From: Shigella phage Sf18
Strand: one strand, 5' to 3'
Sequence record: MF158044
Length of the DNA stretch: 64,000 nt
Every line of letters starts with the position of its first letter. Position 1 is the first letter of the stretch. Shown piece by piece: positions 42,493-43,803 of this stretch. A program made the translations under genes and the position numbers. Below the pieces are notes generated by a model, which saw only the letters and a list, made by a program, of their open reading frames with translations, was not told the origin of the DNA and did no database searches.

Positions 42493-42569
42493 GCACCTAT
42501 AGCCCAATTGGAAGAGGCAGCAGACTTAGAATCTGCTCAGTGTGAGTTCGAATCTCTCTAGGTGTACCA
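42493..42569 (+). tRNA. tRNA with Leu anticodon UAG, class-I architecture
   Basis: Anticodon stem GCAGA/TCTGC loop CTTAGAA, A73, CCA; only 5-nt variable loop; CAATTGG D-loop. Confidence 0.5.
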
Positions 42570-42577
42570 AATTAATG

Positions 42578-42652
42578 CAGGTGTAGCAAAATGGTTATGC
42601 GGCTGACTCTTAATCAGTAAGACGATGGGTTCAATTCCCTCCACCTGTACCA
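42578..42652 (+). tRNA. tRNA-Lys (anticodon CUU)
   Basis: Anticodon loop CTCTTAA, A73, CCA; paralogous to the UUU Lys tRNA. Confidence 0.6.
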
Positions 42653-42658
42653 AACAAT

Positions 42659-42734
42659 GGGGATGTAGTTTACATGGTTAAAACATAAGTTTTGCAAACT
42701 TAAGTACAGGGTTCAATTCCCTGCTTCTCCACCA
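42659..42734 (+). tRNA. tRNA-Ala (anticodon UGC)
   Basis: Anticodon loop TTTGCAA, G3-U70 wobble pair (Ala identity element), A73, CCA. Confidence 0.8.
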
Positions 42735-42740
42735 ATTAGT

Positions 42741-42815
42741 GCATCCATAGTTTAAATGGGAAAATTACAGTCTTCCAAACTGAGGTTGAGGGTTCGATTC
42801 CCTCTGGATGCTCCA
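42741..42815 (+). tRNA. tRNA-Gly (anticodon UCC)
   Basis: Anticodon loop CTTCCAA, T-arm GAGGG-TTCGATT-CCCTC, U73, CCA. Confidence 0.7.
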
Positions 42816-42821
42816 AATAAT

Positions 42822-42898
42822 GCTGCTTTCGTATAATTGGCTATTGCACATCCCTTGTAAGGATGGAGATGCAGGTTCGAGTCCTGTGAGCAGCACCA
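42822..42898 (+). tRNA. tRNA-Thr (anticodon UGU)
   Basis: Anticodon stem CATCC/GGATG loop CTTGTAA, A73, CCA. Confidence 0.7.
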
Positions 42899-42993
42899 AT
42901 TTGAGGTCAAGTGAAAGACCGCTTGAGTCAACTGAAGACCGTAACAAATTCCACGGAGTTGAGTTAGCGGCACAGCTTCAGACCTCTTTCAAA

Positions 42994-43068
42994 GCTCGCT
43001 TAGTTTATATGGTAAAGCCCCATCCTTACAAGTTGGTGAAGAAGGTTCAAGTCCTTCAGCGAGTACCA
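42994..43068 (+). tRNA. tRNA-Val (anticodon UAC)
   Basis: Anticodon loop CTTACAA (one stem mismatch), T-arm GAAGG-TTCAAGT-CCTTC, A73, CCA. Confidence 0.6.
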
Positions 43069-43069
43069 A

Positions 43070-43147
43070 GTTCCAGTATCCCAATTGGCAGAGGATGCAA
43101 GCTCAAACCTTGTATTAGTGACGGTTCGAATCCGTCTTGGAACACCA
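43070..43147 (+). tRNA. tRNA with Leu anticodon CAA, class-I architecture
   Basis: Anticodon stem GCAAG/CTTGT loop CTCAAAC, T-arm GACGG-TTCGAAT-CCGTC, A73, CCA; 6-nt variable loop. Confidence 0.5.
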
Positions 43148-43325
43148 ATTTTAGGAGATTCCTATGAAGCCTTATGGTAGACATGGTAAAGTTGAAATTG
43201 CAAGTTGTGGCTGCTGTGCAGCACATGATGGTGAAGAAGATTATTACAAATGGCGTACAGACCATCGTAAACGCTTTCTCAGAAGAGATAAGAAGAGAGC
43301 TAGACAGGAATCTCAAAAGGATATT

Positions 43326-43402
43326 GCAGAATTAGTTCAAATGGATAGAGCAGCAACCTACGAAGTTGTTAGTTAGGGGTTCGAATCCTCTATTCTGCAC
43401 CA
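43326..43402 (+). tRNA. tRNA-Arg (anticodon ACG)
   Basis: Textbook cloverleaf: acceptor GCAGAAT/ATTCTGC, D-stem GTTC/GAGC, anticodon loop CTACGAA, A73, CCA. Confidence 0.8.
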
Positions 43403-43420
43403 AATTTAATAGGTAACATT

Positions 43421-43648
43421 ATGTATAAACTCATAGTTGAAAAACATAAAGATGACCACAAGATTGAAACAGGTAGATTTGGAGATACTTTCTTTATAGC
43501 GGTTGGTTGGCAATGTGACCCGTTAGAAGTTAGAAAGATTGTTTATAACTTTGCTGGATTAGAACTTAAGCAAGCTATCTTCGAAACATCACTACCTGAA
43601 AATAAGGATACTTGCAATAACGCATATATTCTTTCAAGAGTTCGTTAG
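43421..43648 (+). CDS. hypothetical small protein embedded in tRNA array
   Basis: 75 aa ORF with AGGTAA RBS; stop abuts tRNA-Gln. Confidence 0.35.
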   Translation: MYKLIVEKHKDDHKIETGRFGDTFFIAVGWQCDPLEVRKIVYNFAGLELKQAIFETSLPENKDTCNNAYILSRVR

Positions 43649-43722
43649 GGGATTAGTTTACAAGGTTAAAACCTCGGTCTTTGAAATCGAAGAAGATGGT
43701 TCAATTCCATCATCCCCCGCCA
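43647..43722 (+). tRNA. tRNA-Gln (anticodon UUG)
   Basis: Anticodon stem TCGGT/ATCGA loop CTTTGAA, G73, unpaired 1-72, CCA. Confidence 0.6.
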
Positions 43723-43724
43723 AT

Positions 43725-43803
43725 GCTCCATTACTCCAATTGGCAGAGAGGCCAGATTTAAAATCTGTGTTATGTATCGGTTCGAATCCGATATGGAGTA
43801 CCA
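43725..43803 (+). tRNA. tRNA with Leu anticodon UAA, class-I architecture
   Basis: Anticodon loop TTTAAAA, T-arm ATCGG-TTCGAAT-CCGAT, A73, CCA; 7-nt variable loop. Confidence 0.5.

Follow-up and report, generated by a model that had tools for sequence, protein, structure and literature searches.

Shigella phage Sf18 carries three genes for tRNA-Leu with anticodons UAG, CAA, and UAA and with short variable loops, an assignment on which ARAGORN, Rfam, and a covariance model agree. To judge from their sequences, they are in all probability genuine leucine tRNAs, and it is likely that they represent functional type I leucine-accepting tRNAs of an old, horizontally spread family without the long variable arm, which host LeuRS would charge. 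In textbooks, bacterial tRNA-Leu is invariably described with a long variable arm. The window, that is, the whole stretch of 64,000 nucleotides analyzed here (sequence record MF158044), is from a Mooglevirus (Ounavirinae, Felix O1-like).

Three tRNA-Leu genes with short variable loops

[quoted passage not shown] The CCA of a tRNA-Val gene ends 1 nt before the start of the CAA gene. All three were recognized by ARAGORN and by a parse into cloverleaf parts, with Rfam scores of 56.1, 44.0, and 46.9 bits and scores of 85.2, 76.7, and 75.0 bits, respectively, under our covariance model R1, whose training sequences all share less than 80% identity with the tRNAs of the window. The Rfam scores exceed the gathering score of 29 for the four-helix cloverleaf of RF00005. 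The parse gave for each tRNA a 7-bp acceptor stem, U8 and A9, a 3-bp D stem with a D loop of 11 nt (CAAUUGGAAGA once and CAAUUGGCAGA twice), a 5-bp anticodon stem, a 5-bp T stem with the loop UUCGAAU, and A73. The variable loops are UCAGU (5 nt) in the UAG tRNA, AUUAGU (6 nt) in the CAA tRNA, and GUUAUGU (7 nt) in the UAA tRNA, which is the stemless variable region of about 4 to 7 nt that characterizes type I architecture. With the CCA, the genes have 77 to 79 nt, compared with 85 to 87 nt for host tRNA-Leu. A37, G1.U72, and a single T-stem mismatch (U50.U64) are features of the UAG tRNA, and A36A37A38 and a C27.U43 mismatch are features of the UAA tRNA.

An earlier note on this DNA had proposed these genes from the letters alone. 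ARAGORN returned identical coordinates and anticodons, all on the + strand, and together with the parse it confirmed the variable loops of 5 to 7 nt, the 3-bp D stem, A73, and the encoded CCA. The note had named a long arm or other anticodons as what would speak against its reading; neither appears with ARAGORN or folding, and no single-sequence fold of the three tRNAs contains a long variable arm. Minimum free energy folding of the single sequences gave partial cloverleaves with weak z-scores of -0.6 to -2.1, and the UAG tRNA folded no better than its shuffles. The comparison with related phages that the note suggested was also in agreement, as the same three genes are labeled tRNA-Leu in their annotation.

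The three genes lie in a tRNA array (40075..45003, + strand), in which ARAGORN with default settings found 25 tRNAs, to which a tRNA-Tyr is added, with small conserved open reading frames in between. The tRNA-Tyr(GUA) at 40633..40720 (+, 88 nt, class II, 22.6 bits under R1) was missed by default because of a G-to-T change at 40694 in its T stem and was detected only once the ARAGORN threshold was relaxed. ARAGORN also called two class II serine tRNAs, tRNA-Ser(UGA) at 42150..42239 (+, 90 nt), with its long arm kept, and tRNA-Ser(GCU) at 44829..44921 (+, 93 nt). The serine and tyrosine tRNAs of the array thus retain their long arms, and short loops replace the arm in Leu only. The phage is without any long-arm tRNA-Leu, all three of its leucine isoacceptors being arm-less. 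About 30 nt upstream of the first tRNA there is a sigma-70 promoter-like site (40017..40046, +) with the near-consensus sequence TTGACA-18-TATAGT and a TG, and downstream of the last tRNA there is a terminator-like hairpin followed by a T run (45161..45178, +). Both are consensus matches only, and the overall number of promoter-like sites found by consensus matching is not above chance. An Ro-like RNA-binding gene upstream of the arrays was considered as a common feature of Sf18 and Streptomyces phage BoomerJR and was discarded, the proteins being dissimilar.

A widespread family of arm-less tRNA-Leu

The same three genes, 95 to 100% conserved, recur in about 250 members of the Ounavirinae, phages of Escherichia, Salmonella, Shigella, and Citrobacter. 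The carriers include well-used phages of E. coli, Salmonella, and Shigella, such as relatives of Felix O1 and members of the BASEL collection. Arm-less tRNA-Leu is also present in Klebsiella phage KaOmega of the Vequintavirinae, an unrelated group of enterobacterial phages. A BLASTN search of every complete E. coli genome with the UAG tRNA as the query gave zero matches even at E = 10; it thus has no close host homolog, and nothing was learned in that way.

We searched viral and bacterial contigs with an anticodon-blind pattern consisting of the D arm, class I spacing, and the T loop. All 125 viral matches and 117 of the 119 bacterial ones have leucine anticodons (242/244 overall), and the matches span all six leucine anticodons. 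In 90 nonredundant family members, 97.2% of the stem cells are paired, versus 59% in shuffled and 36 to 47% in slid sequences, with compensatory changes at 20 of 20 stem pairs. Under R1, the best tRNA of the window beyond the three Leu genes scored 54.4 bits. Elsewhere, other family members scored 68 to 92 bits and host class II tRNA-Leu 50 to 65 bits; among the loci searched, host class II tRNA-Leu(CAA) and tRNA-Leu(UAG) ranked directly after the type I Leu tRNAs and above every non-Leu tRNA. Chromosomal genes of Streptomyces, Corynebacterium, and Mycolicibacterium reached 84 to 92 bits, and in Actinomycetota the same tRNA body is a chromosomal gene adjoining housekeeping genes. Of the 50 phage tRNA-Leu genes in a small neutral sample, 15 lacked the arm. 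The statement of the earlier note that bacterial tRNA-Leu is normally class II therefore holds as a rule but is not absolute, given the arm-less genes in the phage sample and in Actinomycetota chromosomes. D-loop length did not track host type, for which we used the GC content of the locus as a proxy; four nucleotides after G18G19 prevail in every GC class. Literature searches found no dedicated study of phage type I tRNA-Leu. As far as sequence comparison can tell, the window's tRNAs belong to a widespread, little-studied arm-less tRNA-Leu family of phages and some bacteria.

Leucine identity elements

The elements recognized by E. coli LeuRS are A73, U8:A14, A15:U48, G18G19, and U54:A58, and the anticodon and the long arm are dispensable (Giege & Eriani 2023, PMC9976931). 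[quoted passage not shown] Published views conflict, however, on the weight of the long arm for LeuRS (PMC9976931 versus PMC6614811 and PMC12360207). In crystal structures, the C-terminal domain of E. coli LeuRS contacts the variable arm (PMC12360207).

The discriminator A73 is present in all three Sf18 tRNAs. They also share the hinge and tertiary nucleotides U8, A14, A15 with U48, A20a, and the T loop UUCGAAU, and G18G19 is preceded by four D-loop nucleotides and followed by four (NAGA; UAGA in E. coli). The pairs U8:A14, A15:U48, U54:A58, G18:U55, and G19:C56 are predicted from sequence rather than taken from a structure. The long variable arm, the hallmark of bacterial tRNA-Leu, is absent in all three. 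C2:G71, an anti-SerRS element of E. coli tRNA-Leu (PMC9976931), is present in the UAG and UAA tRNAs. Pair 3:70 is A:U, U:A, and U:A in the three tRNAs, not the G3:U70 of alanine identity, and short loops with A73 stand in place of the long arm and G73 of tRNA-Ser.

A73 was found in 94% of 223 arm-less phage tRNA-Leu genes. The combination of A73, A14, and A15:U48 is shared by 87% of the arm-less Leu, by 80% of the phage Leu with a long arm, and by at most 31% of any other isotype, but about half of the family sample was picked by a pattern that fixes A14 and A15 and leaves A73 and U48 free, so the A14 and A15 part of this statistic is not independent. The Leu-type D arm (3-bp stem, 13:22 unpaired, AAUUGG) is present in 97% of Leu without the long arm and in 96% of Leu with it, compared with at most 58% elsewhere. 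G1.U72, which the UAG and UAA tRNAs have in common with E. coli tRNALeu(UAA), was rejected as a leucine signature: it is found in 32% of arm-less Leu, but in 52% of Glu and 39% of Val.

Proposed function and decoding

Members of the family to which these tRNAs are assigned occur in many phages, in mobile tRNA arrays, and as chromosomal genes of some Actinomycetota. In Sf18, the three genes would be transcribed along with the remainder of the array, and host enzymes would process the transcripts. [quoted passage not shown] The arm would be expendable in Leu and not in Ser because, according to mutational work, leucylation in E. coli needs no arm. Of the two possibilities raised by the earlier note, unusual class I leucine tRNAs or tRNAs of another identity, the former finds good support in the retained identity elements, in the leucine anticodons of 242 of 244 matches, and in a leucylated Streptomyces relative. 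Points against the proposal are the failure of E. coli LeuRS on the S. coelicolor tRNA, the arm contacts in crystals, the stem mismatches of the UAG and UAA tRNAs, and the folding energy of the UAG tRNA, which does not surpass that of its shuffles.

Once charged, the UAA tRNA would read UUA and UUG, the CAA tRNA UUG, and the UAG tRNA CUA, CUG, and CUU. The earlier note had suggested that the three anticodons cover all six leucine codons. Five of them (UUA, UUG, CUA, CUG, and CUU) are indeed covered by standard wobble, but CUC requires four-way reading by U34. The leucine codons of the phage are 24% UUA, 16% UUG, 28.5% CUU, 9% CUA, 18% CUG, and 4% CUC. In E. coli, about 50% of leucine codons are CUG. 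UUA, CUU, and CUA are far commoner in the AT-rich phage than in E. coli.

Alternative explanations

That the three tRNAs carry another amino acid and would recode or misread leucine codons was the second possibility raised by the earlier note, and we consider it very improbable. The hallmark long arm is absent, A35/A36 is common to tRNA-Phe (GAA), and A73 occurs in several isotypes, but the lack of G3:U70 excludes alanine identity, and the lack of both the long arm and G73 excludes serine identity. Most other synthetases read the anticodon, so one body with six leucine anticodons is hard to fit; the D arm has the form typical of Leu, and the tRNAs resemble no other isotype, R1 placing host tRNA-Leu(CAA) and tRNA-Leu(UAG) above all non-Leu tRNAs among the loci searched. 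It is scarcely credible that the genes are decaying pseudogenes still detected by tRNA finders. The single T-stem mismatch of the UAG tRNA, the single anticodon-stem mismatch of the UAA tRNA, and Rfam scores under those of several neighbors would fit decay, but the genes are near-identical in hundreds of phages, their CCA, T loop, and tertiary-pair nucleotides are intact, and their R1 scores of 75 to 85 bits fall inside the 68- to 92-bit span of other family members. More plausible, though still quite improbable, is that they are poor substrates or nonsubstrates of enterobacterial LeuRS and act as decoys, regulators, or processing spacers or are relics of a former host. E. coli LeuRS reportedly failed to charge the S. 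coelicolor type I tRNALeu(CAA) (PMC6614811), and the LeuRS C-terminal domain touches the arm in crystals (PMC12360207). On the other side, U48 and a D loop of 11 nt are common to the window's tRNAs and E. coli tRNA-Leu, whereas the Streptomyces type has C48 and, in the relatives, 12 nt, and the arm-less minimal E. coli tRNA-Leu remains charged (PMC9976931). The 95 to 100% identity over about 250 phages, the compensatory changes that maintain the cloverleaf across the family, the tie of leucine anticodons to the body (242/244), and the arm-less Leu of the Vequintavirinae (KaOmega), a second, unrelated enterobacterial group, also speak against this reading.

Another explanation, unlikely in our view, is that the loss of the arm is an antidefense trait, by which phage leucine tRNAs escape host nucleases that read or cleave the arm, so that decoding continues after destruction of the host class II tRNA-Leu. 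Retron-Eco7 (PtuAB) and Septu of E. coli cleave host tRNA-Tyr within its variable loop, and the tRNA-Tyr of T5 evades cleavage by a different variable loop (PMC13096335, PMC11555353). Human SLFN11 favors type II tRNAs, and deletion of the arm weakens cleavage of tRNA-Leu (PMC11615386); bacterial Schlafens are antiphage tRNases, but the one studied cleaves the anticodon arm (PMC13056530). The 15 of 50 sampled phage tRNA-Leu genes and the three of three isoacceptors of Sf18 that are arm-less would fit such a selection. Literature searches, however, gave no bacterial defense nuclease that reaches tRNA-Leu via its arm, the same arm-less family is found by housekeeping genes in Actinomycetota chromosomes, where the pressure is not obvious, and T5 retains a long-arm tRNA-Leu. 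The tRNA-Leu of T4, which is long-arm and class II, also weighs against antidefense. The stricter form of the idea, in which arm-less Leu is a counterdefense that remains chargeable by host LeuRS and becomes invisible to arm-dependent class II nucleases, appears clearly unlikely. It would account for the sizeable type I share among the sampled phage tRNA-Leu genes and the near absence of type I among phage tRNA-Ser genes and, if true, would contradict the published view of E. coli LeuRS as type II-only. Functional type I leucine tRNAs of an old family are the reading that we prefer.

The results point to a tRNA family of considerable size that has been overlooked and that extends over phages, tRNA arrays, and Actinomycetota. 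Three conserved arm-less tRNAs with the E. coli identity set offer a simple natural test of the arm requirement of enterobacterial LeuRS. The family is also relevant to tRNA annotation (isotype models), to the engineering of leucine suppressor or orthogonal tRNAs, and to current research into antiphage defenses that target tRNA.

Comparison with known systems

The Sf18 genes add to a known but rare kind of tRNA-Leu. The sole biochemical study of bacterial type I tRNA-Leu presented it as a Streptomyces rarity: the S. coelicolor type I tRNALeu(CAA) was leucylated in vitro, but E. coli LeuRS, described as type II-only, was unable to leucylate it (Fan, Huang, Ji & Wang, Nucleic Acids Res 2019, PMC6614811). 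Like the window's tRNAs, it has a short variable loop of the 5-nt class, a leucine anticodon, and A73, and the LeuRS that charges it has a special leucine-specific domain (PMC6614811). The variable loops of 5, 6, and 7 nt in Sf18 reach the minimum for activity of the S. coelicolor enzyme ScoLeuRS, which is at least 5 nt including nucleotide 48 (PMC6614811). Streptomyces chromosomal relatives share the D arm GCCCAAUUGGCAG and the T arm GUUCGAAUC and score 84 to 87 bits under R1, versus 75 to 85 bits for the window's tRNAs. S. coelicolor has a single chromosomal isoacceptor beside type II tRNA-Leu, whereas Sf18 has three on a phage of Enterobacteriaceae; the former has C48 (PMC6614811) and its relatives the 12-nt D loop, in contrast to U48 and the E. 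coli-like 11-nt D loop of the window.

The class II tRNA-Leu of E. coli (leuQPV, leuW, leuZ, and leuX) shares with the phage tRNAs A73, U8:A14, A15:U48, U54:A58, the 3-bp D stem, the 11-nt D loop N-AAU(U/C)GG-N-AGA, and the codon families read. The host tRNAs differ in their 13- to 15-nt arms, G9, G/A13, and G12:C23 (A23 in leuZ), compared with 5- to 7-nt loops, A9, C13, and C12:G23 in the phage, and identity without the variable region is only 51 to 65%. The arm-less "minimalist" E. coli constructs (Larkin et al. 2002; Asahara et al. 1998, as cited in PMC9976931) required A73 and D/T pairs that are all kept in the phage tRNAs; the constructs were laboratory-made from host sequence.

A Mycobacterium tRNALeu(TAG) with a short variable loop lies in a dense, probably mobile tRNA array, with long-arm chromosomal copies alongside (Behra et al. 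2019, PMC6582537). That work gives it a single sentence and no analysis, and it belongs to another host and element. Animal mitochondrial tRNA-Leu, such as human mt-tRNALeu(UUR), is also class I, with identity via A73 and A14 (PMC9976931), but it has its own LeuRS and a fragile structure and is not charged by ScoLeuRS (PMC6614811). Among phages, the tRNA-Leu(UAG) of T5 has A37 as in the UAG tRNA of Sf18, but it is 85 nt long with a 13-nt arm. Like those of the window, the tRNA-Leu genes of T5 and T4 are phage-borne and supplement host decoding.

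Three leucine tRNA genes without a long variable arm

In the window, ARAGORN finds 25 tRNA genes, all on the plus strand, at 40075-45003. Three of them are leucine tRNA genes: tRNA-Leu(UAG) at 42493-42569 (+, 77 nt), tRNA-Leu(CAA) at 43070-43147 (+, 78 nt), and tRNA-Leu(UAA) at 43725-43803 (+, 79 nt), the lengths including the encoded CCA. Their scores with the Rfam tRNA model (56.1, 44.0, and 46.9 bits, respectively) all exceed its gathering score. We parsed the fold from the sequence, anchored on the ARAGORN anticodon position. Each tRNA has a 7-bp acceptor stem followed by U8 and A9, a 3-bp D stem with an 11-nt D loop (CAAUUGGAAGA or CAAUUGGCAGA), a 5-bp anticodon stem, and a 5-bp T stem with the T loop UUCGAAU, followed by A73 and CCA. 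The variable loops are only UCAGU (UAG), AUUAGU (CAA), and GUUAUGU (UAA). The earlier note had proposed these coordinates, anticodons, and a class I fold from the sequence alone; ARAGORN returned the same three Leu anticodons at 77 to 79 nt, and together with the parse it bears the proposal out. The two tRNA-Ser genes of the array are 90 and 93 nt (ARAGORN), and a class II tRNA-Tyr(GUA) at 40633-40720 (+), missed by default ARAGORN and by Rfam at the gathering score, is 88 nt; the short variable region is therefore particular to the leucine tRNAs there.

The tRNA region is 98.5% identical to that of Escherichia phage vB_EcoM_3HA14 (Ounavirinae, Mooglevirus) and matches 303 phage records, mostly of Felix O1-like phages infecting Escherichia, Salmonella, Shigella, Citrobacter, and Erwinia. 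Each Leu gene is 95 to 100% identical in about 250 of those genomes, and the CAA gene has an 84%-identical copy in more distant Erwinia and Cronobacter phages. Where the related records carry annotation, the same genes are annotated as tRNA-Leu, so the genes are already in the databases, and their architecture is the point at issue.

A family of arm-less leucine tRNAs

Near-full-length blastn matches of the UAG tRNA are annotated tRNA-Leu genes of phages of many hosts, namely, Mycobacterium, Streptomyces, Gordonia, Klebsiella, Enterobacter, Enterococcus, Pseudomonas, Acinetobacter, and Synechococcus. Three of these phages were fetched, and all have arm-less tRNA-Leu of 74 to 78 nt: Mycobacterium phage ET08 (CAG, GAG, and CAA), Klebsiella phage KaOmega (CAA and UAG), and Streptomyces phage BoomerJR (UAG). 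We then used an anticodon-blind pattern, CCAATTGGNAGN{1,2}GGN{25,33}GTTCGAATC, which constrains the D arm and T loop and requires class I spacing. It matches at least 120 IMG/VR contigs, and among the matches listed, 125 of 125 tRNAs with the pattern have Leu anticodons (UAG 48, CAA 37, UAA 23, GAG 6, CAG 6, and AAG 5). The same pattern matches at least 120 contigs of one-per-species bacterial genomes; among the matches listed, 117 of 119 have Leu anticodons, the exceptions being single GGU and CUA variants. If the synthetase ignores the anticodon, a single body bearing six leucine anticodons is to be expected; such a set is hard to reconcile with any non-leucine identity. The two variants are also what one expects of such a synthetase. 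Both come from the bacterial contigs (loci L230 and L150): the GGU variant occurs once, on a Caldilineaceae chromosome, and the CUA variant (an ARAGORN call) once, in a 13-tRNA array, where it may be an amber suppressor.

Viral contigs gave 204 unique arm-less Leu tRNAs, in which each stem pair is paired in 89 to 100%, with several Watson-Crick types, and pair 13:22 is never paired. A covariance model of the family, R1, was built from a MAFFT alignment of 90 nonredundant members, all of them below 80% identity to the window's Leu tRNAs. In this alignment, 97.2% of stem cells are paired, versus 59% after shuffling and 36 to 47% with slid partners, and both-sided changes occur in 20 of 20 stem pairs. 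The window's three tRNAs score 85.2, 76.7, and 75.0 bits with R1, and the runner-up tRNA in the window, Arg-ACG, scores 54.4 bits; the three are members of the arm-less family. A weak R1 match at 7838-7901 (+; 15.8 bits, E = 0.014), around a CAATTGG word in coding-looking sequence, is probably due to chance.

Among phage tRNA-Leu, 87% of the arm-less and 80% of the long-arm genes have the combination A73, A14, and A15:U48; no other isotype exceeds 31%. The sample was chosen in part by a pattern that fixes A14 and A15 and leaves A73 and U48 free. The result is the same for the 86 co-resident arm-less Leu tRNAs that fall outside the pattern (83 with A73 and 80 with U48). A 3-bp D stem with a long D arm is found in 97% of arm-less and 96% of long-arm Leu tRNAs and in at most 58% elsewhere. 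The earlier note had weighed unusual leucine tRNAs against tRNAs of another identity with Leu-type anticodons; the identity nucleotides and the family membership speak for the former, which we take to be right.

Frequency and origin of arm loss

In a neutral sample of viral contigs, drawn by an unrelated tRNA D-arm motif, 15 of 50 tRNA-Leu among the matches listed do not exceed 80 nt, and arrays of at least five tRNAs hold 13 of these 15; since the sample is small and covers the matches listed, an arm-less share of about 30% is a rough figure. Among the same matches, 1 of 34 tRNA-Ser and 3 of 15 tRNA-Tyr are short. The contrast between Leu and Ser agrees with the rule by which the long arm is required by SerRS and dispensable for LeuRS (PMC9976931). 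In a pattern-selected sample, 4 of 36 tRNA-Tyr among the matches listed are short as well. The short tRNA-Tyr of the two samples (viral loci L010-L129 and L250-L369) are 73 to 80 nt long, a minority, so phages may also have tyrosine tRNAs that lack the arm. Phage T5 has a tRNA-Leu with a long arm, so arm loss is not universal among coliphages. A second arm-less Leu subfamily (viral loci L348, L263, and L325), in which the D arm, GGAAU(U)GGCAUAC, is class II-like and the variable loop is GUUUU, suggests that the arm has been lost more than once, independently.

Three explanations for the missing arm still stand. A dispensable arm may have been lost neutrally in an old lineage that was then inherited and spread horizontally, or arm loss may benefit a mobile tRNA, which SerRS could then not mistake for its own and which would not rely on the arm being recognized in a host-specific way. 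The third is escape from nucleases that recognize the arm or cut it. This has precedents, among them human SLFN11, whose preference for type II tRNAs depends on the arm (PMC11615386), but we found no bacterial nuclease aimed at tRNA-Leu through its arm in the literature searched, and we consider this explanation rather unlikely.

Array context, expression, and decoding

The gene directly upstream of the array (38493-39908, +) encodes a PHROG 850 "RNA-binding protein" with Pfam domains DUF2828 and DUF7788. Phage BoomerJR has a Ro-like RNA-binding protein at the same place, before its tRNA array; the two proteins share no sequence similarity, and the idea of a shared gene was dropped. A tRNA-Met(CAT) called by ARAGORN at 40326-40402 (+) is below the Rfam gathering score; the array has two CAT tRNAs, and this one could be an initiator, elongator, or lysidine-type Ile tRNA. 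The tRNA-Tyr differs from that of vB_EcoM_3HA14 by a single G-to-T change at 40694, which turns a T-stem G.U into U.U, and may be a weakened copy or reflect a sequencing error. A conserved 70-amino-acid open reading frame (ORF) (PHROG 10765; 43164-43376, +) overlaps the first 51 nt of tRNA-Arg(ACG) (43326-43402), and a second small conserved ORF (PHROG 14202; 43421-43648) occupies the next array gap.

The three Leu genes would be transcribed together with the rest of the array, for which a near-consensus sigma-70-like site at 40017-40046 (+) and a terminator-like hairpin at 45161-45178 (+) are candidates. Spacers between the Leu genes and adjoining tRNAs are 1 to 7 nt, and processing would be by host RNase P and other nucleases. 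The UAA tRNA is predicted to read UUA and UUG, the CAA tRNA UUG, and the UAG tRNA CUA, CUG, and CUU. Leu codon usage across 55 long ORFs of the window is UUA 24%, UUG 16%, CUU 28.5%, CUA 9%, CUG 18%, and CUC 4%, whereas roughly half of Escherichia coli Leu codons are CUG; the three anticodons would therefore serve codons that the phage overuses.

Charging and comparison with cellular leucine tRNAs

The tRNA-Leu genes of E. coli K-12 (leuQPV, leuW, leuZ, and leuX) are 85 to 87 nt long, with variable arms of 13 to 15 nt. Phage and E. coli tRNAs share A73, U8, and A14. In both, A15 goes with U48, which ends the variable region; the D stem has 3 bp, position 13 being unpaired; G18G19 has four D-loop nucleotides before it and four after it (NAGA in the phage and UAGA in E. 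coli); and the T loop allows U54:A58, G18:U55, and G19:C56. They differ at position 9 (A in the phage and G in E. coli), position 13 (C versus G/A), and pair 12:23 (C:G versus G:C in three E. coli genes and G:A in leuZ), and identity outside the variable region is only 51 to 65%. According to the review of Giege and Eriani, E. coli LeuRS uses exactly the shared elements, needs neither the anticodon nor the long arm, and still charges arm-truncated tRNA-Leu (PMC9976931).

Many of the bacterial-genome matches are solitary genes in Actinomycetota (L151, L175, L182, L143, L137, and others), with CAA in Streptomyces and UAA in Corynebacterium, Mycolicibacterium, and Nocardia. These chromosomal genes score 84 to 92 bits with R1. 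At two loci checked, the neighbors are housekeeping genes, encoding a Ppx/GppA phosphatase and a branched-chain amino acid ABC transporter, with no adjoining phage genes. Fan et al. (2019) described a type I tRNALeu(CAA) of Streptomyces coelicolor with the variable loop ACAGC, which is leucylated by S. coelicolor LeuRS and human mitochondrial LeuRS (PMC6614811). This tRNA, compared by way of its relatives and the published description, evidently represents the family in S. coelicolor and anchors it by experiment as leucine accepting; the solitary genes show that the type is not confined to Streptomyces. Behra et al. (2019) mention in one sentence a tRNA-cluster tRNALeu(TAG) in Mycobacterium with a short variable loop (PMC6582537). 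We found no discussion of arm-less tRNA-Leu in phages in the literature searched.

Host LeuRS would charge the three phage tRNAs via A73 and the hinge. They could instead be poor substrates or nonsubstrates: E. coli LeuRS failed to leucylate the Streptomyces type I tRNA and was described as type II only (Fan et al., PMC6614811), and a 2025 structural paper stresses that its C-terminal domain touches the arm (PMC12360207). Both are real evidence against taking host charging for granted. On the other side, the arm was dispensable for E. coli LeuRS in older mutational data (PMC9976931); the Streptomyces tRNA has C48 (PMC6614811) and its relatives a 12-nt D loop, whereas the phage tRNAs have U48 and an E. 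coli-like 11-nt D loop, which sets them apart; and the Vequintavirinae, a second and unrelated enterobacterial phage group, also carry arm-less Leu tRNAs. We therefore regard poor charging as improbable and, judging from sequence, the three as very probably functional, host-charged leucine tRNAs.

The wider pattern is underdescribed. It takes in a sizeable fraction of the phage tRNA-Leu sampled and extends to many tRNA arrays and to several lineages of Actinomycetota, and it clashes with a published claim on E. coli LeuRS. The three tRNAs are type I bacterial tRNA-Leu, a known but rarely noticed kind, here on an enterobacterial phage.
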